A DNA stretch of 64,000 nt. Source: a virus. This document shows, piece after piece, positions 3,909 through 38,308 of the stretch. The translations under genes and the position numbers were made by a program. The stretch is from positions 10,353-74,352 of the IMG/VR virus record IMGVR_UViG_2857776322_000004; one strand, given 5' to 3'. The notes under the pieces are model-generated. The model saw only the letters and a program-made list of their open reading frames with translations, had not been told where the DNA came from and made no database searches. Within the stretch, counting starts at the first letter, position 1, and every line of letters begins with the position of its first letter.

Positions 3909-5213
3909 ATGAGCCTCACGTTCACCGACATCTTCTGCGGCGCCGGCGGCAGCAGCACCGGCCTGGTCGCCGCTGGCATGGAACTCAAACTCGCCGCGAA
4001 CCACTGGGCCAAGGCGATCGAAACCCATGCCGCCAACCACCCGAACGCCGAGCACGTCTGCGCCGACATCAACAACTACGACATGCGCCGACTCCCCACG
4101 ACCCGCGTCCTGTGGGGCTCGCCGATCTGCACCGAATCCACCCCCGCCGGAGGCAAGAAACGCCCACCGACCCGCGGCCAACTCGCCCTTCTCAAACACG
4201 GACCCGTCGCCGACGCCGCATGGGAACGCACCCGCGCCACCGCCTATGACATCATCCGCGCCACCGAAGTCCACCGCTACGACGCCGTCCTGTGCGAGAA
4301 CGTCGTCGAGTTCGCCACCGACTGGGAACTCTTCGGCTGGTGGCGCAATGGGATGGAACTCCTCGGCTACAACTCACAGATCACCTCCGTCTCCTCCGCC
4401 CACATCGGAGGCCCTGGCAACCTGCACGCCCCACAATGGCGCGACAGGATCTACATCGTCTTCACCCGCGCCGGGATCCCACTACCCGACCTGCGCCCCA
4501 CCCCACTCGCCCGCTGCAAGCAATGCGACCAGGACATCCCCGCCGTACAGTCCTGGCGCAACGGCCGCACCATCGGCAAGTACAAGCAGCAGTACGACTA
4601 CCGATGCCCCAACACCGCGTGCGGGCACGCCTTCGTCGAGCCGTACATCCGCCCCGCCGCCGACATCATCGACTGGACCAACCGCGGCCGCCGGATCGGC
4701 GACCGGCGCCGGCCGCTGGTGGAGAACACCCTCGCCCGCATCCGAGCGGGCCTCGCCGCGCACTCGACCACCGACGAAGGACTCCTCGTGCCCTGCGGCG
4801 GCGGATGGAACGACTCACCGACCTCGACCGCGGACCCCATGCGCACCCGCATGGCCAACCCGAAAGGCTTCGAGGCCCTGTTCGCCCCACCGAACATCCA
4901 ACCCCGGCGCAGCACCCCACCACGCAACCACGGCCTGGTGATTCCCTACCGCAAGGCCCTCCCCAAAACCACCGCGGAACCAATTCACACCATCAGCACC
5001 GTGGACTCCGCAGCCCTGGTCCAAGGCGGCCCGCAACTCGAAGACTGCTACTTCCGGATGGTCCAGCCGCGCGAACAACTCCTCGCCCAACGGTTCCCCG
5101 CGGACTACATCGTCCACGGCAACCAAGGCGAACAAACCATGCAGGCCGGCAACGCCGTCTCCGCCAACGTCGCCCAATGGATCGGCCAGCGCGTAGCCGC
5201 AGTCCTCGCGTAA
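3909..5213 (+). CDS. DNA cytosine-5 methyltransferase
   Basis: FTDIFCGAGG (motif I), SPICT (IV), ENV (VI), Q.RDR (VIII), QAGNAV (X). Confidence 0.92.
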   Translation: MSLTFTDIFCGAGGSSTGLVAAGMELKLAANHWAKAIETHAANHPNAEHVCADINNYDMRRLPTTRVLWGSPICTESTPAGGKKRPPTRGQLALLKHGPVADAAWERTRATAYDIIRATEVHRYDAVLCENVVEFATDWELFGWWRNGMELLGYNSQITSVSSAHIGGPGNLHAPQWRDRIYIVFTRAGIPLPDLRPTPLARCKQCDQDIPAVQSWRNGRTIGKYKQQYDYRCPNTACGHAFVEPYIRPAADIIDWTNRGRRIGDRRRPLVENTLARIRAGLAAHSTTDEGLLVPCGGGWNDSPTSTADPMRTRMANPKGFEALFAPPNIQPRRSTPPRNHGLVIPYRKALPKTTAEPIHTISTVDSAALVQGGPQLEDCYFRMVQPREQLLAQRFPADYIVHGNQGEQTMQAGNAVSANVAQWIGQRVAAVLA

Positions 5214-5672: not shown

Positions 5673-6119
5673 TCAGCCCTGCGCCTCGAGGGCGGCCTTG
5701 GCGCGCTCGTACCACTCCACAGGCACGACGACAGCCACCCGCTTCCTGGCTCTGCTCGCGTCGACGACGAACTTCGGGAGATGGCCGTGGACTTCCTCCA
5801 GCGCCGTGGGCAGTACCTTGCGAAGTTGACCGACGAGGAGTTCGTCCCTGTCGAGAGTCCTCGGACGTGGCGCCCAGGGCGAGCCGATGACGTTGTGTCG
5901 AGAGCGCTCGACGCGTATGGCGCGCAGCTCTGCGGCGAGCGCGGAGGGGCGATTGTCGAACCACACCACCGAGCCCGACGCGACCTGCGGCCACCACGGC
6001 TTTTGGCGCGCATGCACGGTCAGCCGCGCGTAGGGGTTGATACCGATCCCGACGTACAGGAGCGCACCTTTCGCGTCGTACAGGCGGTACATCGCGGTTG
6101 GCTCGTTTTCAAGCCACAT
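5673..6119 (-). CDS. GIY-YIG nuclease fused to C-terminal Phd/YefM-like domain
   Basis: TAMYRLYD..LLYVGI..R..H..E..N; C-term VGQLRKVL..RVAVVVPVEWYE; RBS GGAGG. Confidence 0.85.
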   Translation of the reverse strand: MWLENEPTAMYRLYDAKGALLYVGIGINPYARLTVHARQKPWWPQVASGSVVWFDNRPSALAAELRAIRVERSRHNVIGSPWAPRPRTLDRDELLVGQLRKVLPTALEEVHGHLPKFVVDASRARKRVAVVVPVEWYERAKAALEAQG

Positions 6120-6134
6120 CTGAACCCTCCGGGG

Positions 6135-6332
6135 TTACACCGAGGAGGAGTCCCCCCGGTTTCTCTGGACCTCGATTGCCTCGGCATCTGGCACGGGAAC
6201 GATCGCGGCCACTCGCCTGCCTCGGCTGGTGACGTAGGTGATCTGGCCGCGGATGGCCGTCTCGTTCAGAACGTCGGACAGCGTGGTGCGCAGTTCGCGG
6301 ACGCCGATTTCGGAGCTTGTGTTCGCAGGCAT
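6135..6332 (-). CDS. Phd/YefM-family antitoxin-like DNA-binding protein
   Basis: IGVRELRTTLSDVLNE..ITYVTSRGRRVAAIVPV; ATG 6 nt after TAGCAT (leaderless-like). Confidence 0.85.
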   Translation of the reverse strand: MPANTSSEIGVRELRTTLSDVLNETAIRGQITYVTSRGRRVAAIVPVPDAEAIEVQRNRGDSSSV

Positions 6333-6338
6333 ACGCAC

Positions 6339-6382
6339 ATGCTAGCTGCGGTACGCTAGCGTACCTTGGTGTACACAAGGGT
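6339..6382 (-). promoter_or_regulatory. Operator/promoter of Phd cassette: 16-bp perfect palindrome GGTACGCTAGCGTACC (6350-6365), -10 TAGCAT (6344-6339), CCTTG-N7-CAAGG
   Basis: Read directly from sequence; function inferred. Confidence 0.6.
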
Positions 6383-30775: not shown

Positions 30776-31089
30776 ACAGCGAGCGCGTCCGGCAACCCTG
30801 TACTTCCGACGCAGCCGGCAGTACAGGGACTCCGACGGCCGCCGACAGGGCGAACCTCGACCCGAAGCCCTGGATCTACAAGGACCACCCCGCGAACGGC
30901 GACTGGTCCACCGAACCCTGGCAGTGGACCATCCCCGGCTGCCCCTGCGACATCGACGGAGGAGACCTTCGGAACCACCACTGGATCATCGTCTACGCCC
31001 ACGCCCTGGCGCACGCCGCACGCTGCCCGGCGATGCCTAGACCGGCCGCGCCAGGCCAGGGCGCAGCCGCTCGAACACCGGATGCCTGA
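30772..31089 (+). CDS. hypothetical protein
   Basis: ATGA coupling; overlaps convergent ligase end. Confidence 0.5.
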   Translation: MNSERVRQPCTSDAAGSTGTPTAADRANLDPKPWIYKDHPANGDWSTEPWQWTIPGCPCDIDGGDLRNHHWIIVYAHALAHAARCPAMPRPAAPGQGAAARTPDA

Positions 31090-32017
31090 GATACCCGCCC
31101 GACGTCCACCCCGTCGCGCTCACCTCGGCAACCAGCCGCGGCTCCACCCAGCGCGCACCACGACCCTCACTCACCGGCCCCGCGAACGGCGACGTCTCGC
31201 GCGGCACAACCGCGAACAGCTCCGCGAGCTGCCGCTGCTCCGCACCGGACATGCCCGATCCCACGGCCCCGACGAACCGCAACCCGCCGGCCTCGGCAAC
31301 GCCCACCAGGAGCGCACCGGGAACACCACCGGACCGGCCCCGAACCGGCAGCCAACCGCCGATCACCACGTCGATGCGGACCTGGTGCTTGATCTTGATC
31401 CACTCGTCCGAGCGCACCCCGGGCCGGTACGGCGACGTCAGCAACTTGCAGACGATCCCCTCGAAACCCTGCTCCCGCGTCAGCTCGAACGCCCGGCGGC
31501 CGTGGCCCACCGTGTGCGCAGGCGTCGCCCAGCGGGCACCCGCCAGACCCAGGCCCAGCAGTTCGCCGCGGCGCGCCGTGTACGACTCGGTCAAAAGGCT
31601 GCGACCGTCCAGGTGCAGGACGTCGAAGATCATCAGATGTACGGGCGTCGTGCGCGCGAGCCGACCCGCCCTGGCCCCGTCGCGCACGGTCATCCGCGTC
31701 TGAAGGGCCCCGAAGTCGGGGCGGCCCCGCTCGTCCAGGACGACCACCTCTCCGTCGAGAATCGCCGGACGGCGCAGCGAGGCTCCGAGCGCGGCCAGCT
31801 CCGGATAGGTACCCGACGCATCCCGGCCGGTGCGGGTTACCGGGCGCGCCGTCCCGTCGCCCGAGCAATAGACGAGCAGCCGGGCGCCGTCCCACTTGAC
31901 CTCGTAGCCGTAGAGGCCGTCGACGGCTGCCGACGGGAGACGGCCGGGGGAGGCCAGCATCGGGGACAGCCGGGGGAGGCCCACCGGTCCCGCCGCCGAG
32001 GGGCGCCGCGTCGCCAT
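31037..32017 (-). CDS. ATP-dependent DNA ligase (LigD/LigC-type ligase domain)
   Basis: SPMLA, EVKWDG, ILDGEVV, FDVL, EGIVCK, WIKIK, OB-fold FVGAVGSG..LRHP.F. Confidence 0.9.
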   Translation of the reverse strand: MATRRPSAAGPVGLPRLSPMLASPGRLPSAAVDGLYGYEVKWDGARLLVYCSGDGTARPVTRTGRDASGTYPELAALGASLRRPAILDGEVVVLDERGRPDFGALQTRMTVRDGARAGRLARTTPVHLMIFDVLHLDGRSLLTESYTARRGELLGLGLAGARWATPAHTVGHGRRAFELTREQGFEGIVCKLLTSPYRPGVRSDEWIKIKHQVRIDVVIGGWLPVRGRSGGVPGALLVGVAEAGGLRFVGAVGSGMSGAEQRQLAELFAVVPRETSPFAGPVSEGRGARWVEPRLVAEVSATGWTSGGYLRHPVFERLRPGLARPV

Positions 32018-32123
32018 GCAACGAGCCTCACGCCGCTCGGCCCTCCCCGCACCCGGAGTCGGCCGACCGGGCGACAGCACAGAAGAGGGGCGCTCGCCGC
32101 AGCGAACACCCCTCCCGAACCTC

Positions 32124-32309
32124 TCAACCCAGGCGACCGGCCAACATCGCCCACGCGCCCACCGGCACGACGATCACCGGCGACCACGCGTCCTTGCTGT
32201 CCCGCACACCCACCCCAGTGACCAGGCGCGCGACCTCTACGCAGTAGTCCTGTTCGCTGTGGCGGGACTTTCGCCACTGCGGTACGCGGTTACCTCCAGA
32301 GCCGTACAC
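32124..32309 (-). CDS. DUF397 (BldB-like) protein
   Basis: WRKSRHS..CVEVA..VGVRDSK..AW. Confidence 0.88.
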   Translation of the reverse strand: MYGSGGNRVPQWRKSRHSEQDYCVEVARLVTGVGVRDSKDAWSPVIVVPVGAWAMLAGRLG

Positions 32310-33181
32310 ACGTCTCGCCTTCGTCGATCCACCAGTTCCAGTGACGCCTCGGGCGACAGGGCAGCCTCGACCAATCGGTCGAACGTCCTCCGGAACGTAC
32401 CGATGTCGTCCGGCGCGTCGACCAACTGGGACCCCGTCAACTGCTCAAGCCACGCCGCGAAGTGCCCAGGCTCAGTCTCCATCAGAACCATCGGAGACGA
32501 CACCGTCCACGGCGAAGTGAACGGCAGAACCTGGAAGCGCAGCATGGGCCAACGGGACGCCAACATCAGCACGTGCTCCAACTGGTCGGCCAGCACCGAC
32601 AGGCCGCCGATCGGGTGGTACAGCGCGGCCTCGGACACGACGAACCAGGCCGGTACCTCGCGCTCCACGTAGTCCACCGCACGCGCCACCCGGATCCGCT
32701 GCCGCTCTGCGGCCACCTCCGGCAACAGCGTCGGATCCTGCATGTGGATCGTCGCCCACGCACACTGCGGCGACTGCAACGGCCCAGGGAACCGCAGCGT
32801 CTCGAAGCCGAACACGCTCAAAGCACCTTCCTCGAGGCGCATCAGTCGGCGCAGGCGATCGGGCACGCCGTTCAGCAAGTCCCGCATGCCTTCGCCGTAG
32901 CCGTCCTCCTCAGCGTCCATCTCGAAGTCCAGCGGACGAAAGCCGAGTTCGGTGAGCCTGCGCCCGAACATTGCCTCCAGGATGTGCTGGTAGACCGCCG
33001 TGGGCCTCGGCGGATTCGCCGACTCCCACCTGCGGATGTGTCGCACCGACAGACCGACGGGACGACCCAGAACTTTCGCCGCTTCCTCGAAGGCAGCGGC
33101 GAACTCGGCTTGCGAGTACCAGCCCATGGCCAAGCGAGCGGAGACCAGCGCGGGGTTCCCGGGAGTATGGGTGCGGGTCAT
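32237..33181 (-). CDS. XRE HTH-DUF5753 regulator
   Basis: N-term HTH (SQAEF..IRRWE); C-term FETLRFPG.LQ..R..RQ..SEAAL..QLEH..QVLPF..F.RL..ALSP. Confidence 0.85.
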   Translation of the reverse strand: MTRTHTPGNPALVSARLAMGWYSQAEFAAAFEEAAKVLGRPVGLSVRHIRRWESANPPRPTAVYQHILEAMFGRRLTELGFRPLDFEMDAEEDGYGEGMRDLLNGVPDRLRRLMRLEEGALSVFGFETLRFPGPLQSPQCAWATIHMQDPTLLPEVAAERQRIRVARAVDYVEREVPAWFVVSEAALYHPIGGLSVLADQLEHVLMLASRWPMLRFQVLPFTSPWTVSSPMVLMETEPGHFAAWLEQLTGSQLVDAPDDIGTFRRTFDRLVEAALSPEASLELVDRRRRDVCTALEVTAYRSGESPATANRTTA

Positions 33182-33714
33182 GACGCCCGTCCCAGGGAGC
33201 TTCGAAGGCTCTGGACTCGCGGCTGCCGGAGGCGCGGGACGCGGTGTTCGCGTGCCAGCGTGCGCAGCGATTCGTAGGTCCACGGGGTCAGAGGGGCAAT
33301 CTTGGTGGCGGAGACACCCGCGCGCATCTCCTCGAGGATGACTTCCTCGAGGCGGGTGCGGGCGGCGGTGAGTGCCTGTTCGGCGAGGTGGTAGTCGGCC
33401 CTGCGGCTGGTGAAGTGTGTGGACGGGGTCCAGGTGCTTCGGCGGGGCGGACGGGCCACCTCGGCGCCGAGTACGCCGGGTGCCACGTTCCATCGGGGCC
33501 GGTCGTGGGCGATCGTCAGTGCCTCGGCGGATTCCGCCTCGTCGCGCGTGTCGAACCACTCGACCTCACGGGTGACGACTTGGCCCCACCAGGGCGACTG
33601 ACTCGTGTGGTCCGCCCAACGCCGGCGGGGGTTGGTGGCGATGCCGACGTAGATGAGTGCGTCGCCGGCGTCGAAGAAGCGGTAGACCGCGGTGCGGCCC
33701 TTGTGCACGGCCAT
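33178..33714 (-). CDS. GIY-YIG nuclease fused to C-terminal HTH paralogous to 33728-34015
   Basis: TAVYRFFD..LIYVGI..R..H..E..N; C-term 32/79 identical to upstream gene by manual alignment. Confidence 0.85.
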   Translation of the reverse strand: MAVHKGRTAVYRFFDAGDALIYVGIATNPRRRWADHTSQSPWWGQVVTREVEWFDTRDEAESAEALTIAHDRPRWNVAPGVLGAEVARPPRRSTWTPSTHFTSRRADYHLAEQALTAARTRLEEVILEEMRAGVSATKIAPLTPWTYESLRTLAREHRVPRLRQPRVQSLRSSLGRAS

Positions 33715-33727
33715 GCATGCCTCCGGA

Positions 33728-34015
33728 TCAGCCGGAGGCGGGGCCTCCGGACGGGTCTGACGTGTCCCTGATGGATCGAACGGTGGGTGGTCGCTTCAGC
33801 GGAACGCCGTACTCGCGGGCAATGCCTCGTAGCTTTTCGTGGGACCACGGCACGACCTCGGCGACCTTCTTGGGGCTCGCGTCCGGGTGCCGCAGTTCCT
33901 CGGCTGCGGTCTCGCGCAACTTGGTCTCGGCGAGTGCGAGTGCGGCTTGCGCCGCCTCAAACTCCGCCAGTACCGCGAGGAGCCGAGCGCTCGGTTCGTA
34001 GGTGTCCTTGGCCAT
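33728..34015 (-). CDS. small helix + HTH DNA-binding protein
   Basis: SPKKVAEVVPWSHEKLRGIAREYGVP; own promoter upstream. Confidence 0.8.
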   Translation of the reverse strand: MAKDTYEPSARLLAVLAEFEAAQAALALAETKLRETAAEELRHPDASPKKVAEVVPWSHEKLRGIAREYGVPLKRPPTVRSIRDTSDPSGGPASG

Positions 34016-34037
34016 GACGGCATGTTCGCACAACCGG

Positions 34038-34138
34038 TTTGGCCATTGCGATTGCCCTGCACCGACCATAGATAGGACAGGCGATTTGGTCAAGGTAGCT
34101 TGGTCACTCTTGTTTGGCCAAACTATCTGTCCTAAACT
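34038..34138. promoter_or_regulatory. Divergent promoters with four TTGGYCA operator boxes
   Basis: minus: TTGACC(34093-88)-N17-TATGGT(34070-65); plus: TTGTTT(34110-15)-N17-TAAACT(34133-38); boxes at 34038, 34085, 34099 and 34113 (TTTGGCCAAA). Confidence 0.7.
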
Positions 34139-34180
34139 GGAGTCAGAAGCACCCGGTGATTCCAACCGAAGGGGCCTGCC

Positions 34181-34423
34181 GTGTCCGACACCCTGTTCCG
34201 TTCCGCCGACCTGATCGAGCCTTACGACCTGGTCGTGTACGCGGGTTCGAAGGCCGAGTTCCACGGGTTCTACGAGGCCGTGCCGTGCTTCTGCCGTCAC
34301 TGCATTCACGACTTCGCGCGGGGCCGGAACGACGTGCGGTACGAGTTGGTGGACCCGTGGGGCGAGTCGGCGCAGTTGCGCTGCGTGCGGCGGGCGTCCA
34401 TTCGGCCCGCGCGTCTCGGCTGA
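34181..34423 (+). CDS. hypothetical protein
   Basis: first gene after rightward promoter; RBS AGGGG. Confidence 0.7.
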   Translation: MSDTLFRSADLIEPYDLVVYAGSKAEFHGFYEAVPCFCRHCIHDFARGRNDVRYELVDPWGESAQLRCVRRASIRPARLG

Positions 34424-34502
34424 TCGAACCGGTCCGGGGCGGCGCACCGCCCCGGACTTCCCGAGTCCGTATCCGGTCCACTCGTTCCCGAAGGAGAAGC
34501 AG

Positions 34503-34865
34503 ATGTCTTACGACCTGTTGATGGTTGAGCCGGCCGGCCGCGCGGACGAGGGCTGGTTCAGCATGGCGAGCGGGAACATGGCGGCCGTGCGCGGCGCCAT
34601 GACCGACCTGGGCATGCTCGTGCCGGGCGCGGACGACGTGGACGCGTGGGGTGAGACCGCTCTGCCGGTGGGCATCCCCGTCCACAAGCTGTCGGACAAC
34701 GGTGGTTGGCGGGTGACTCCGCGCGAGATCTCGGCGGCCCTGCTGGCGTACTCGATGGCGTCGCACACGGATCGGGCGACGGCGCGTGGCGTGTACGGGC
34801 GTTGGGACGAGTGGGTGCTGTTCCTGGTGGACGCGTGCGAGACGGGTGGGTTCCGTGTCGAGTGA
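34503..34865 (+). CDS. hypothetical protein
   Basis: RBS AAGGAG. Confidence 0.75.
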   Translation: MSYDLLMVEPAGRADEGWFSMASGNMAAVRGAMTDLGMLVPGADDVDAWGETALPVGIPVHKLSDNGGWRVTPREISAALLAYSMASHTDRATARGVYGRWDEWVLFLVDACETGGFRVE

Positions 34866-35334
34866 GGGGGTCATCCGGACGAAGTTCCGGTACGCGGTGG
34901 GTCGTCCTCTCGTCGTCGTGGAGACGCGGGGGGCCGGCCCGGGAGCCCAGGCCGAGCACACGAAGCGGTACTTGGCCGCGATCCACGCCGAACAGGATGC
35001 CTATGCCGACGAGTTGGAGGCGTCCGGCGGATATCGACCGGCGATAGAGGCCATCCGCGCGAAGCGGTGGAGGTTCACCCGCGGGCACGCGGCGACGTTG
35101 GGTTGCCGAGCGGTGCCGCGCCCGTCGAAGTCGGCGTTCGCGCCGGCGTCGTGGGTGGCGTGGACCGACGTCAACACGGGCGCGGCCCGGCGCGGTGTCG
35201 TGGTGGGCCCGGTCGAGAGGTGGTCGGTGTCGATTGTCCCGGCGGACGGCGGGGATGTCGTCTCGGCCGTGAGGCGGGGCGATGGAGTGTTCCTGGACGG
35301 GATGACCGTGGTGTCGGTCGACCCGCCGGAGTGA
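34855..35334 (+). CDS. hypothetical protein
   Basis: G-ending codon bias; start uncertain. Confidence 0.55.
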   Translation: MSSEGVIRTKFRYAVGRPLVVVETRGAGPGAQAEHTKRYLAAIHAEQDAYADELEASGGYRPAIEAIRAKRWRFTRGHAATLGCRAVPRPSKSAFAPASWVAWTDVNTGAARRGVVVGPVERWSVSIVPADGGDVVSAVRRGDGVFLDGMTVVSVDPPE

Positions 35335-35390
35335 GGTCGGCCCGGCCCGGCCGGGCCGGGGTGGAGACAACCGTTCGGGAAGGGGCGGTC

Positions 35391-35726
35391 GTGAAGGCGT
35401 TGTTGCGGGGGTTGGGGCTGGTGTTGCGGGCCCTGGCGGACGAGTTGCTGCGGGAGCCGGAGTGCCCGCGGGACATGGTGACGGTGGATGCGTATCTGCG
35501 GGCCGCCGGTGCGTCGGCGGAGTGGCGGGCGCGGTGGTCGCCGACGGTGGGGCGCATGGTGGCGGACTCGTACCGGTCGCGTACCGGTGCGGAGCCGGCG
35601 CAGGTGCGGGAGTGGCACAACGGGGCGTGGCGGGCGGTGTACGCGTATCCGTTGACGCACGTGTCGCAGATCCAGGTGGCGTGGTCGGACTGCGCGTTCC
35701 TTCCGGTAGCGAAGGCTCGGGTGTGA
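35391..35726 (+). CDS. hypothetical protein
   Basis: RBS AAGGGG. Confidence 0.6.
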   Translation: MKALLRGLGLVLRALADELLREPECPRDMVTVDAYLRAAGASAEWRARWSPTVGRMVADSYRSRTGAEPAQVREWHNGAWRAVYAYPLTHVSQIQVAWSDCAFLPVAKARV

Positions 35727-36052
35727 CGGGTCTGCGGGTGTGCGACGGCGGTCTCGCCGGGGGCTGCTCGCGTGCTGCGCAGTGGTCGGTGTGCAGGGCG
35801 GGTGAGGCGCACGAGGCGGGAGCCCGGTTCGCGTGCGGCCGGCATCTGACCATCGCGGTGGACGAGATCACGGGTGGCGAGTGCTGCCGGCTGGACCTGC
35901 GTCGGATCGTGTGCCTGGAGCGTTGAGGTGGCGTCCGCGCCACGGTCGTGGCGCGGCGTCCGGTGTGGGATCACAGACTTGAGCAGGGCCCCGGGACGTC
36001 GAGATGCGAGGTCGCCGTCCGGGGCCCCAGAGACACGGGAGTGTGCACTCCG

Positions 36053-37396
36053 ATGTCCCAGATTTCGAACCCTAGCCGGGGTGATGGCGTGGGCGCCATG
36101 CCGGTGGCGCGGGGGCGCCCCGGGGGGTGGCTTCCGGTTGCCGCTGCGTGTGCTGCGGATGCGTTCCTCGGGTTCCTTGCGTTTCGGTTGTCGTTCGCGG
36201 CGTTGACGGCGATCGCGGTGGAGCACGGCGTCCAGGGCGGCATTGCGTGGATGTTCGCGGTGATGGTGGACGGCGGCGCGGTGACGGGCACGGTCGGGGT
36301 GGTGATGGCGAAGCGGTCCGGGCGCGGAGTGGGCCCGTACTGGTGTGTGGTGGTGGGCTCGACGGGGGTGAGTTTGGCGTTCAACTGTGCGCACAGCGAC
36401 GGGACGGGCCTGGGTGTGGCGATCGCGGTGACGCCGCCGCTTGCGCAACTGGTGGCGACGGAGCTTTTGGTGCGGCTTCTGCCGGAGCCCGACGCGGTGC
36501 CCACGGACGTCCAGCTCGCCTCGGTGGAGCGGGCCGTGGCTGTGGCGGTGGACGCGGCCGATCGGGCGCGCGAGAGTCTCGCCCTGGTCAAGCGGGCCCG
36601 GGAGGAGGCCGGCGCGGCGGCGCAGGTTGCGGTGAAGGAGGCGGCCGGCGCGGCGGCGCTCGAGGTGGATGCGGTCGCGGAGCGCGCGGAGCGTGCGGCG
36701 GATACCGCGATGGGGGCGGCGGAGCGTGCGGCGGAGGTGGTGGCGTCGGCGCACGCGGAGGCCGCCGACGTGCTCGATCGTGTGGGCACGGCGGCCAAGC
36801 ACGTGGCACGCGACGCCACGGCCGTGGCGCGGGACCTGGAAGCCGTGGCGGCCGGGGTCGTGTCGGTGGAGCGGTGTGCGTCGGAGGTCGGCGAGCACGT
36901 GGCGCGGGTGGAGCGGATCGCCGACGGTGCAGAGGCGGCGGTGGCGCGGGCGGCCGAGGCCGCCGGGCGGGACGCCACGGCGGAGGCGCGACGGGCGGCG
37001 GACGCTGCGGTGGGTGCGGTCGATCGTGTGTCGGGGCACCTGGTGGAGGTCGGCGTGGCGCGGCGGGAGGAGGCGGAGGTTTGGGCCGCCTCGGTGCGTG
37101 AGGTCGAGCGGCTGGTCGCTGTGGCGCGGGGGCATGCGGAGGCCGCGGAGGCGGCGGCGCGTCCGGTGGTGGACGAGGGGCCGTATCCGGTGGGGACGTC
37201 GGAGCGGGTGGTGTACGACCTGTGGGTGGGCGGTGGTCGGTGGCCGGAGGAGAGTGAGATTCAGGCCGCGTTGCGTGCGGCGGGTCTGGGGTCGAGTCGG
37301 CAGCAGGCGCAGAAGAAGCGGACGTTGGTGGGTCGGGACTTTCCGGAGTTGCCGCGTAAGCGGGAGCAGTTGGAGTTGGCGGCTGCTGGGCGTTGA
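36053..37396 (+). CDS. DUF2637 membrane protein with long Ala/Glu coiled coil
   Basis: AFRLSFAALTAIA..AWMFAVMVDG..SLAFNCAH..PPLAQLVATELL. Confidence 0.75.
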   Translation: MSQISNPSRGDGVGAMPVARGRPGGWLPVAAACAADAFLGFLAFRLSFAALTAIAVEHGVQGGIAWMFAVMVDGGAVTGTVGVVMAKRSGRGVGPYWCVVVGSTGVSLAFNCAHSDGTGLGVAIAVTPPLAQLVATELLVRLLPEPDAVPTDVQLASVERAVAVAVDAADRARESLALVKRAREEAGAAAQVAVKEAAGAAALEVDAVAERAERAADTAMGAAERAAEVVASAHAEAADVLDRVGTAAKHVARDATAVARDLEAVAAGVVSVERCASEVGEHVARVERIADGAEAAVARAAEAAGRDATAEARRAADAAVGAVDRVSGHLVEVGVARREEAEVWAASVREVERLVAVARGHAEAAEAAARPVVDEGPYPVGTSERVVYDLWVGGGRWPEESEIQAALRAAGLGSSRQQAQKKRTLVGRDFPELPRKREQLELAAAGR

Positions 37397-37443
37397 TGTG
37401 GGGGTGTGCGGTGGGGTGCCCTTTCCTTGCTTCAAAATAACCC

Positions 37444-37482
37444 TTGCCAACGGCAAGACTTATTGATAGATTAAGTCTTGCC
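37444..37482 (+). promoter_or_regulatory. Promoter TTGCCA-N17-TAGATT with 11-bp inverted-repeat operator
   Basis: -35 37444-49, -10 37467-72; GGCAAGACTTA-N9-TAAGTCTTGCC 37452-37482. Confidence 0.8.
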
Positions 37483-37505
37483 AACGACAAGGGAAGGGGC
37501 TCACA

Positions 37506-37700
37506 ATGGGCAACAAGGAGATCAAGAACCTCATCAAGGCGCTGGAGGCGCAGGGCTTCACCGTCGTCCAGTCCAAGAGCAACCACTACAAGGTCTACAA
37601 GGGGGGCCGCCTGATCGCCACGCTGCCCGCCACCCCGTCCGACCGTCGCAGCCTCCTGAACTGCATCGCGGTTCTGCGCCGCGCCGGCTACAACGGCTGA
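37506..37700 (+). CDS. hicA: HicA-family mRNA interferase toxin
   Basis: IKALEAQGFTV..SNHYKVY..TLPATPSD dsRBD-like fold with catalytic His. Confidence 0.75.
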   Translation: MGNKEIKNLIKALEAQGFTVVQSKSNHYKVYKGGRLIATLPATPSDRRSLLNCIAVLRRAGYNG

Positions 37701-37706
37701 CCGCAA

Positions 37707-37740
37707 GGGTCCTCCCGGGGGTGCCGCCCCGGGAGGACCC
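37707..37740 (+). terminator. 14-bp hairpin between toxin and antitoxin genes
   Basis: GGGTCCTCCCGGGG-gtgccg-CCCCGGGAGGACCC. Confidence 0.5.
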
Positions 37741-37783
37741 CGGTCCCTCCCAGACCAACGACAAGGAAGGAACCAACCACATC

Positions 37784-38284
37784 ATGACCGCCATCGCCTG
37801 GTCGGCGCGCATCGACATCGAGGGCGCGCCCCACGAGGACGACGTGGACACCGTGCTCGAACAGCTCGCCGCCCACTCGCCCGCGATCGGAACGACCGCG
37901 GCCGGCAACCTGACCGTCCGCATCGCCGTCGAGGCCACCACCGCGCGCCAGGCCGCCGACGCCGCCCTGCGGCTGGCCACTGCGGCGGCCCAGGCCGCGA
38001 ACCTCGGCCGCACCGTCATCGCCGTCGAGGTCACCCGCTGGGACGAGTTCGAACGCGAACTCGCGCAGCCGACCGTCCCGGAGCTGTGGGGCCTGGCCGA
38101 GATCGCCGAGCACCTCGAGGTCAGCCGCAGTCGCGCCGGACAGCTCGCCGCCCGGGACGACTTCCCGCCGGCGGTCCAGCGCATCAAGGCGGGCCCGCTC
38201 CACATCGCCGAGCAGGTGCGCGCCTGGACCGAGACCTGGAAGCGCCGCAACGGCCGCCCGCCCCTGACGGAGACCATCGCCTGA
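37784..38284 (+). CDS. putative antitoxin with C-terminal AlpA/MerR-like HTH
   Basis: C-term LWGLAEIAEHLEVSRSRAGQL..DFP; position after hicA. Confidence 0.7.
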   Translation: MTAIAWSARIDIEGAPHEDDVDTVLEQLAAHSPAIGTTAAGNLTVRIAVEATTARQAADAALRLATAAAQAANLGRTVIAVEVTRWDEFERELAQPTVPELWGLAEIAEHLEVSRSRAGQLAARDDFPPAVQRIKAGPLHIAEQVRAWTETWKRRNGRPPLTETIA

Positions 38285-38308
38285 CCCACCCGATCCCTTG
38301 TCCTGGCA

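Follow-up and report, generated by a model that had tools for sequence, protein, structure and literature searches.

The controller (C) proteins of restriction-modification systems, C.PvuII and C.Esp1396I among them, are small dimeric helix-turn-helix (HTH) proteins encoded just upstream of a co-transcribed nuclease gene, and their promoters carry several palindromic sites of unequal quality. Regulation and cleavage can also be combined in one protein: I-TevI, the GIY-YIG enzyme of the phage T4 td intron, binds an operator over its own promoter without efficient cutting and so acts as both endonuclease and autorepressor (PMC2988022). Other phage nucleases have DNA-binding domains related to those of separately encoded proteins: Odn (Gp88) of ICP1 shares 42% identity with PLE RepA_N (PMC8263062), and in the T5orf172 homing endonucleases the DNA-binding domain is a homologue of the CapR repressor (PMC10055350). 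Phage nuclease genes are found at mosaic boundaries, that is, at the boundaries of genetic exchange between phages (PMC8263062, PMC10055350). Here we describe a two-gene cassette, P0002–P0001, found in a 64,000-nucleotide stretch of DNA from the virus record IMGVR_UViG_2857776322_000004 (hereafter the window; all positions are given in window numbering, 1–64,000).

P0002 is a small stand-alone protein and P0001 is a GIY-YIG nuclease, the C-terminal region of which is paralogous to P0002; we call the module common to the two the X domain. Boxes of the form TTGGYCA are clustered in the divergent region upstream of P0002, and the sole close relative, a prophage in genome G073, has the entire cassette in a divergent, sharply delimited version. 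Our preferred reading, to which we give about an even chance of being correct, is that an autoregulating controller (P0002) and an I-TevI-like targeted nuclease (P0001) together constitute a mobile specificity cassette. The case for this is built from paralogy, catalytic residues, domain architecture, conserved box arrays and mosaic boundaries. The initial annotation of the window had placed an HTH protein and a GIY-YIG–HTH protein in 33178–34140; two leftward genes are present there, at 33728–34015 and 33178–33714. Their products and domains, as defined from open reading frames (ORFs) and AlphaFold2 (AF2) models, the latter scored by the predicted local distance difference test (pLDDT), are:

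33728–34015, minus strand: P0002, stand-alone protein of 95 amino acids with a long helix plus HTH (X domain), the proposed controller and autoregulator (ORF, AF2)
33178–33714, minus strand: P0001, GIY-YIG nuclease of 178 amino acids with a C-terminal X domain (PF01541; PHROG 3312 and 16880, 'endonuclease')
33487–33693, minus strand: GIY-YIG catalytic domain, P0001 residues 8–76 (AF2 and Foldseek)
33421–33486, minus strand: disordered linker, P0001 residues 77–98 (AF2 pLDDT 44–77, no secondary structure)
33235–33420, minus strand: X domain of P0001, residues 99–160 (AF2 and paralogy to P0002)

Residues 9–73 of P0001 match the PF01541 GIY-YIG model with an expect value (E) of 6.7e-9 and a score of 36.4 bits, against a curated cut-off of 22.6, and a PF01541 match was obtained for 37 of the 38 members of its family that were scanned. 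The AF2 model of the protein (overall pLDDT 83) has the GIY-YIG fold at residues 8–71, where pLDDT exceeds 90, with strands at 8–14, 20–26 and 48–54 and helices at 29–45 and 57–71; top Foldseek matches were the GIY-YIG domain of UvrC (1yd6; E 2e-4, probability 1.0), Slx1 and I-TevI (1ln0). When 18 homologues are aligned, residues Y11, Y22, G24, R32, H36, E64 and N76 do not vary, and among 38 more distant members Y11, G24 and E64 are still invariant, with Y22, R32 and H36 conserved in at least 90%. Judged by these alignments the catalytic residues are intact, and the initial annotation was right in that one of the two paralogous domains is joined to a GIY-YIG domain. In the AF2 model the disorder spans residues 72–98 or thereabouts, a segment with no Cys or His cluster in its sequence, and P0001 thus lacks a zinc finger of the I-TevI type. 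The X domain follows, with a 33-residue helix (99–131) and an HTH (136–156) consisting of two short helices, 136–142 and 147–156.

The layout of P0001, with an N-terminal catalytic domain, a flexible linker and a separate domain of DNA-binding type, is that of a modular homing endonuclease. It resembles I-TevI in having its GIY-YIG domain at the N-terminus, a flexible linker, an HTH-containing C-terminal domain and the same catalytic residues. Unlike I-TevI, P0001 is a protein of 178 amino acids with no zinc finger in its linker, its gene does not lie in an intron and a stand-alone paralogue of its DNA-binding module is encoded directly upstream in the operon, with the operator array appearing to belong to that paralogue.

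Evidence for the paralogy comes from direct comparison of the two proteins. BLASTP aligns residues 92–173 of P0001 with residues 3–85 of P0002, with 32 of 83 positions identical (39%; E 2e-12), and their Smith–Waterman score of 153 compares with 29 ± 5.6 in shuffles, none of 2000 reaching 153. The relationship had initially been reported as 32/79 identities; the paralogy holds but the count is corrected. Within the predicted recognition helices, ESLRTLAREH in P0001 and EKLRGIAREY in P0002, six of ten residues are common to both. The AF2 model of P0002 (pLDDT 84, confident over residues 10–70) has helices at 10–41, 48–52 and 59–68. Its best structural match is TrpR (VIA Z 5.1, root-mean-square deviation 1.4 Å over 47 amino acids) and the top structural matches are nearly all HTH DNA-binding domains, including TrpR, Mu C, Mor, DeoR, Sin, Tn3 resolvase, Fis and NtrC.

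Against the PDB, a Foldseek search with the P0002 model gave no match at E ≤ 0.001. P0002 has no match in Pfam, PHROGs or PADLOC (nor has P0001 in PADLOC), there is no Pfam model of the X domain, a tblastn search with P0002 against 50,697 phage records found nothing and the host genome contains no strong X-domain copy besides this pair. A profile search identified 292 cluster representatives among 1.84 billion, mostly stand-alone proteins of 75–125 amino acids together with some tandem doubles and some proteins of ~180 amino acids in which the domain is C-terminal. When 147 X-domain proteins were scanned, 12 carried GIY-YIG, five T5orf172/MUG113 and one Endonuclease_7. The weakest profile matches carry HTH_23, HTH_28, Sigma70_r4 or Mor, and the neighbours of the X domain in the Atlas are HTH clusters. 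On the models, the X domain is likely to be a long helix followed by an HTH. The term 'HTH' first applied to the shared domain is thus in keeping with the models and with weak fold and profile matches, though no Pfam, PHROG or PADLOC family supports it. One protein of ~166 amino acids elsewhere (L023 1243–1740, genome G176) is a tandem pair of X domains with 58% identity between the two, and several of the top profile matches are likewise tandem doubles, which suggests that X domains work as a pair on one site.

The divergent region between P0002 and P0003, the gene that opens the rightward operon, is 165 bp long. TTGGYCA occurs 17 times in the window, where 7.8 ± 2.8 would be expected, and six of the matches fall in 34008–34121. 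These six make five sites, at 34008, 34039, 34086, 34100 and 34114, one of which is palindromic; the site at 34008 covers the P0002 start codon. Four boxes had been annotated and all four (34039, 34086, 34100 and 34114) are present, the fifth being that at 34008. The elements of this region are as follows:

34112–34123, no strand: best box, perfect 12-bp palindrome GTTTGGCCAAAC, in the -35/spacer of the rightward promoter (palindrome and box scan)
34100–34107, no strand: box TTGGTCAC, with each neighbour 14 bp away (box scan)
34086–34093, no strand: box TTGGTCAA, whose minus strand is the -35 hexamer TTGACC of the leftward promoter (box and promoter scan)
34039–34046, no strand: box TTGGCCAT in the P0002 leader (box scan)
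34008–34015, no strand: box TTGGCCAT over the P0002 start codon, minus strand ATGGCCAA (box scan)
34065–34093, minus strand: leftward promoter-like TTGACC-N17-TATGGT, the single promoter-scan site in 32000–35000, where 0.1 was expected
34110–34138, plus strand: rightward promoter candidate TTGTTT-N17-TAAACT, read from the sequence (7/12, below the scan threshold)
34073–34134, no strand: 21-nt module (box, 5 nt, CTGTCC, TA...) present twice in opposite orientations, one copy toward each promoter (inverted repeat I1)

The best box is a perfect palindrome, and TTTGGCCAAA is found only once, at this box, in the 10.96-Mb genome. Of the back-to-back promoters proposed initially, the leftward one is borne out by the promoter scan; the rightward one can be read at its place but scores too low to be picked up. 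The arms of inverted repeat I1, 34073–34093 and 34114–34134, are 76% complementary. With the best box in the rightward core promoter and two boxes over the leftward -35, the region has, in its sequence, the look of a graded multi-site operator. As the layout of the array is conserved in an orthologue and at other loci (below), it is very likely that proteins bind these boxes, which lie across both promoters. The box over the P0002 start has counterparts at other loci (L064 and L084), where ATGGCCAAG or GTGGCCAAG is likewise found at the start of the X gene; this placement may partly reflect a conserved Met-Ala-Lys N-terminus. Across the whole window, beyond the operator region, TTGGNCAA with one mismatch occurs 104 times against 67 ± 9 expected, which may be a codon or composition effect.

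The gap between P0002 and P0001 is 13 nt, and the sequence GGAGG (33720–33724) directly follows the P0002 stop, 5 nt before the P0001 ATG. The P0001 stop in turn overlaps the ATG of the next gene, P0004 (as ATGA), and a DUF397-like ORF comes next, so that P0002 and P0001 appear to open a longer leftward operon:

32237–33181, minus strand: P0004, XRE-type protein with DUF5753 (PF19054, E 5e-34), its ATG overlapping the P0001 stop
32124–32309, minus strand: small DUF397/BldB-like ORF overlapping the P0004 end (PHROG 10815, E 1.3e-9)
34181–34423, plus strand: P0003, Cys-containing protein of 80 amino acids, divergent, opening the rightward operon (ORF)

As in C-protein operons, a small gene for a likely HTH protein here directly precedes a nuclease gene in one operon and has several unequal sites in its own promoter. 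Unlike those operons, no DNA methyltransferase gene adjoins the cassette (neighbours at 31000–38300), there is neither an XRE-type C-protein fold nor a C-box, and the nuclease itself bears a copy of the controller domain.

The most informative evidence comes from comparison with G073, which belongs to the same genus. The locus there (L004) has the operon and the divergent gene as in the window. Protein identity is 86% for P0003 and 84% for P0004, falling to 54% for P0002 and about 47% for P0001. The DNA follows the same pattern, the flanks being about 80–93% identical and the stretch 33183–34105 about 45–70%, which defines one further feature:

33183–34105, no strand: variable cassette comprising boxes, leftward promoter, P0002 and P0001 (drop in DNA identity to G073)

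The left edge of this cassette falls exactly at the P0001 stop and P0004 start. TTGGYCA is absent from the diverged stretch of G073; L004 has TTGTTCA three times, against 0.10 expected, with all three copies aligned with window boxes and two of them spaced 14 bp apart as in the window. The best box (34112–34123) aligns with AGCTTGTTCAAGCT, the box at 34100–34107 aligns with TTGTTCAC with the 14-bp spacing kept, and an inverted TTGTTCA stands at the place equivalent to the 34039–34046 box. The geometry of the leftward promoter is retained as TTGTCA-N17-TAGCGT, and that of the rightward promoter in part, with a -10 (TAGACT) but no conserved -35. That the layout of the boxes is kept when their core has changed and the surrounding sequence is scrambled argues for real binding sites, and the box array initially described has a layout that is conserved both here and at other loci. 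The comparison also bears on which protein might read the boxes. P0004 was considered as a candidate and rejected: the N-terminal HTH region of the protein has hardly changed between the window and G073 and yet the core of the boxes differs, which argues that the box reader is encoded inside the variable cassette.

To ask which of the two X domains goes with the boxes, we turned to 130 loci of this GIY-YIG family, which form 110 clusters at 80% identity and were drawn from metagenomes as well as from genomes and viral contigs, applying an X-domain hidden Markov model to 100 non-redundant loci with enough upstream sequence. A stand-alone X gene lies directly upstream of the nuclease in 14 of the 100. 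In six of these the C-terminus of the nuclease is also an X domain, and in the other eight it is RHH-like, Phd-like, another HTH or absent. C-terminal X domains are accordingly more frequent where there is an upstream X gene (6/14) than where there is none (6/86; odds ratio 10, p 0.0015), although the loci are not independent. Three loci (L063, L064 and L084) have three or four TTGGnCAA-like boxes upstream of the stand-alone X gene, phased at 13–14 bp, and one or two further boxes at the X-gene start, giving 15–16 matches against about three expected. L084 has the array next to a nuclease that lacks an X domain. At all array-bearing loci the stand-alone proteins have a common recognition helix, E(T/K)(L/V)RGIA(R/N)EY, whilst those of the fused copies are diverse (ESLRTLAREH, QTLRNLAGDK, APVFRKVGKK and TPMIQAIGKR). 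Together, the L084 array and the constancy of the stand-alone helix indicate that the boxes go with the stand-alone protein, and the fused X domain has probably, to judge by its helices, moved to other targets. The initial proposal that both paralogues read the boxes is not supported, as the L084 array and the wide variation of the fused helices speak against it. In a tree of X domains the stand-alone copies group together (support 80/83), as do the fused copies (89/93), from which it follows that the duplication is older than the split between the two cassette alleles and that the pair has long been co-inherited.

A second subgroup of stand-alone X proteins (L113, L117, L121, L137 and L141) has a different recognition helix, ETIRRIARA, and these five loci have another upstream motif, ATAGCCAACATACACTTG, directly before the X start codon; in L121 and L137 the motif forms 10-bp inverted arms, ATAGCCAACA ... 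TGTTGGCTAT.

Of 400 genomes searched in the family, 34 contain the P0001-type catalytic module; outside the family few genomes of the class have it, and it also occurs in 192 phage records, almost all of them from mycobacteriophages; searching with P0001 gave one distant match among genome contigs and one locus among viral contigs. At the C-terminus these nucleases differ widely (GntR, XRE, X, Phd-like, RHH-like, Cys-rich or no domain), and the gene just upstream often encodes a small DNA-binding protein, with partners at other loci matching the Phd, VapB and MqsA antitoxin families. The upstream protein matches the nuclease C-terminus in six loci of X type (L003, L004, L063, L064, L113 and L121), one of XRE type (L006, E 1.5e-11) and one of GntR type (L025, E 3e-4). 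Mirroring as a general rule of the nuclease family was dropped, as a survey by BLAST only found a mirrored upstream paralogue in 5 of 83 loci, compared with 5 of 332 control pairs. In the XRE-type pair (L006 ~1555, genome G381) the GIY-YIG gene has an in-frame TAG at codon 19, which may mark a pseudogene or a sequencing error. In one subfamily of this GIY-YIG domain (L043, L009, L012, L013 and L019) an insert, GNGRNKPKEWW, is accompanied by a Cys-rich domain at the C-terminus, HGHCxxCRxPYPC; the L043 copy comes from a small contig of the genome that contains the window (G000 contig C5, 4818–5069).

How does the cassette compare with phage nucleases that have borrowed a regulator's domain? Like Odn and the T5orf172 nucleases, P0001 belongs to the GIY-YIG superfamily and has a DNA-binding domain homologous to that of a separately encoded protein (here 39% identical), but the order of domains is reversed, the DNA-binding domain of P0001 being C-terminal. 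A second difference lies in the donor of the domain, which for Odn is part of an antagonist element whose origin is attacked; for P0001 the nearest relative of the domain is encoded 13 nt upstream, in the same operon, and is co-inherited. With donor and nuclease inherited side by side, self-targeting must somehow be avoided.

From these features we infer how the proteins might bind DNA, which protein pairs with which sites, whether DNA is cleaved and to what biological end. P0002 would be a small dimeric DNA-binding controller that binds the phased TTGGnCAA-type boxes of the divergent region. With boxes over the leftward -35, the leader and the P0002 start, and the best box in the -35/spacer of the rightward promoter, P0002 would exert autoregulation on the leftward operon, which comprises P0002, P0001, the XRE/DUF5753 gene and DUF397, and would damp expression of the rightward one. 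P0001 would be a modular, 'beads-on-a-string' GIY-YIG endonuclease, the DNA-binding module of which is an old and diverged duplicate of the controller. Its helix and HTH would deliver the nuclease, by way of the flexible linker, to a related and probably not identical site, where it would nick or cut the DNA; competing or allelic phage DNA is the likely substrate, much as with homing or exclusion nucleases. P0001 may bind its own operator without cutting it, as I-TevI does. Boxes, promoter and both genes would then travel as one specificity module that is exchanged between related prophages.

Several points weigh against this mobile controller–nuclease cassette. Searches via P0003 and P0004 through ~400 family genomes found no relative with a cassette-free 'empty site', which leaves the mosaic pattern as the sole argument for mobility, and that pattern could arise from ordinary exchange of phage modules. 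Six of the 12 X-fusion nucleases have no upstream X gene. P0002 has no obvious Shine–Dalgarno sequence, and the HTH domains that it matches in structural comparison score poorly (Z no higher than 5.1, Foldseek E above 1). Finally, the rightward promoter is poor by consensus and its -35 is not conserved in the orthologue, and the boxes resemble -35 hexamers (TTGACA-like), one of them being the leftward -35 itself.

The alternative closest to the initial annotation is that both paralogues read the same graded boxes, so that the locus is a multi-operator switch in which they compete or form mixed dimers to balance the two promoters, the nuclease adding cleavage or being incidental. The window by itself is compatible with this: the recognition helices agree at six of ten residues, identity across the entire domain is 39% and the boxes overlap both promoters. 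Tandem X proteins (L023 and several top profile matches) imply that two different X domains can act on one site, and I-TevI is a GIY-YIG enzyme that also represses (PMC2988022). Beyond the window the picture is different, as L084 has its array without a nuclease X domain, the nuclease C-terminus is of some other kind at eight of the 14 loci where an X gene lies upstream, and the fused helices of L004, L063 and L064 have strongly diverged when the stand-alone helices are constant. Transcription from a single operon means that the ratio of P0001 to P0002 would be set by translation and not by opposing promoters, and we see nothing that ties the region to an integrase or to lysogeny control. We consider such a two-protein switch unlikely.

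The description 'lambda-like' does not fit the anatomy either. The cassette resembles lambda CI/Cro with OR1–OR3 in having divergent promoters overlaid by several related, graded sites. Unlike in lambda, however, a single operon to one side encodes both paralogues, a DNA-binding signature is missing from the divergent P0003, the predicted P0002 fold is a long helix plus HTH (Fis, Mor or TrpR-like) rather than a CI/Cro HTH and nothing points to bistability or to a link with lysogeny. We regard the cassette as a variant of the modular phage nucleases already known, rather than as a demonstrated lambda-type switch, and not by itself as a new kind of switch.

Another possibility, which seems to us quite unlikely, is immunity by occupancy: the nuclease would be aimed, by its copy of the controller's domain, at controller-type sites, the resident copies of which are shielded by the stand-alone protein, leaving the bare sites of an incoming phage to be cut. 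Were this true, it would serve to exclude related phages or to home the whole specificity cassette, and the repeated, independent association of GIY-YIG with a matching upstream domain (X, XRE, Phd or GntR) would be a general design principle.

A distinctly improbable alternative is that the genes form a toxin–antitoxin-like or abortive-infection pair, with P0001 as a DNA-damaging toxin that P0002 neutralises through mixed long-helix dimers and repression of the operon, such that loss of P0002 frees the nuclease. A small DNA-binding gene first and an enzyme second, tightly coupled and behind a palindromic operator, is the pattern of a type II module; the partner in a second cassette of the window is Phd/YefM-like, partners at other loci match Phd, VapB and MqsA, and in the AF2 models the long helix is a plausible dimer interface. 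Neither P0001 nor P0002 has a PADLOC match, however, and P0002 has none in Pfam. Many partners cannot pair with their nuclease through a shared domain because its C-terminus is of another fold, and in the tree the stand-alone and fused lineages have long been separate. We know of no toxin family of P0001's kind. Lastly, it is very improbable that the boxes are not operators at all but overlapping -35-like elements and A+T-rich promoter sequence in a G+C-rich genome, with the gene pair a local duplication: TTGGYCA is near the -35 consensus, one box is the leftward -35 and TTGGNCAA with one mismatch is in window-wide excess (104 against 67), but a perfect 12-bp palindrome unique in 10.96 Mb is hard to explain in this way, the orthologue retains both the phasing and the positions, with a different core, in surroundings that are only about 50% identical, and arrays recur beside homologous genes at unrelated metagenomic loci.

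The second cassette of the window just referred to (cassette B; 5673–6338, minus strand) encodes a 67-amino acid Phd-like protein followed by a 148-amino acid GIY-YIG protein, the catalytic domain of which is 41% identical to that of P0001. Its C-terminus weakly resembles the Phd-like partner (E 8e-4; 4 of 2000 shuffles reach the score), and a 16-bp palindrome, GGTACGCTAGCGTACC, lies at 6350–6365 in the divergent promoter. A C5-cytosine-methyltransferase-like ORF (about 4100–5213, plus strand) ends ~460 nt from cassette B, a proximity that raises a restriction-modification-like reading for this cassette.

The window, which has a G+C content of 70%, lies inside a 7.0-Mb contig (C1) of the 10.96-Mb genome. 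The nearest homologues in public databases are from Embleya sp., one Embleya orthologue being 89% identical and that of Embleya sp. NPDC059237 being represented by proteins P0005 and P0022; the host is an Embleya-like actinomycete. Surrounding genes encode RNA-repair enzymes, DUF932, DUF2637 and DUF6221 proteins and a TROVE (Ro60-type) protein, a gene set that fits the reading of the region as a prophage. The neighbours at 31000–38300 comprise a ligase, the XRE/DUF5753 and DUF397 genes, P0003, unknown proteins and DUF2637. The ligase, an ATP-dependent DNA ligase (PF01068 and PF04679; 31037–32080, minus strand), is downstream of the cassette operon on the same strand and joins the RNA and DNA repair genes of the prophage. 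We take the ORF at 32124–32309 to be DUF397 from its WRKS..CVEVA..VRDSKD motif, and together with the XRE/DUF5753 gene it presumably makes a WhiJ/BldB-type pair. The XRE/DUF5753 gene with this partner (32124–33181, minus strand) is translationally coupled to the nuclease gene, and the host genomes have many paralogues, at 44–50% identity. On the other side P0003 has no family match in Pfam or PHROGs and no DNA-binding signature. Its homologues are found in prophage-like regions of four other genomes (L046–L049), with DUF932 directly next in two of the four, and the small DNA-binding gene that lies divergent to it is another one each time (X-like in L046 and RHH-like in L049).

The same gene order is seen in Cluster F mycobacteriophages, in which Llama gp44, an 'HTH DNA binding protein', precedes gp43, a 'GIY-YIG endonuclease', and Avani gp48 precedes gp47. 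The Cluster F nuclease resembles P0001 in family (32% identity, E 6e-13), in size (175 amino acids) and in its C-terminal helix plus HTH; the HTH gene, of 64 codons, overlaps the nuclease start by 4 bp. Llama gp44 shows marginal similarity to the C-terminus of gp43, with 42 of 2000 shuffles reaching the score. Repeats between the Llama integrase gene and gp44 were considered as a possible box array and set aside, being of TCACCCTA type and apparently integrase-related. Unlike the cassette described here, the Cluster F pair adjoins an integrase and an immunity repressor. A literature search found no functional study of this pair.

If the proposed model of controller and targeted nuclease is correct, the cassette would be an actinobacterial addition to the few phage nucleases that are targeted by the DNA-binding domain of a regulator, as exemplified by Odn with RepA and T5orf172 with CapR. 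The new twist would be that the donor of the domain, the nuclease and the operator array are kept as one exchangeable unit. The work also defines a small DNA-binding family for which Pfam has no model, together with a candidate motif, TTGGnCAA arrays with a 13–14-bp phase, such that the pairing of protein and site is directly testable. For the unstudied HTH and GIY-YIG pairs beside the Cluster F integrase and repressor, it provides a testable hypothesis.

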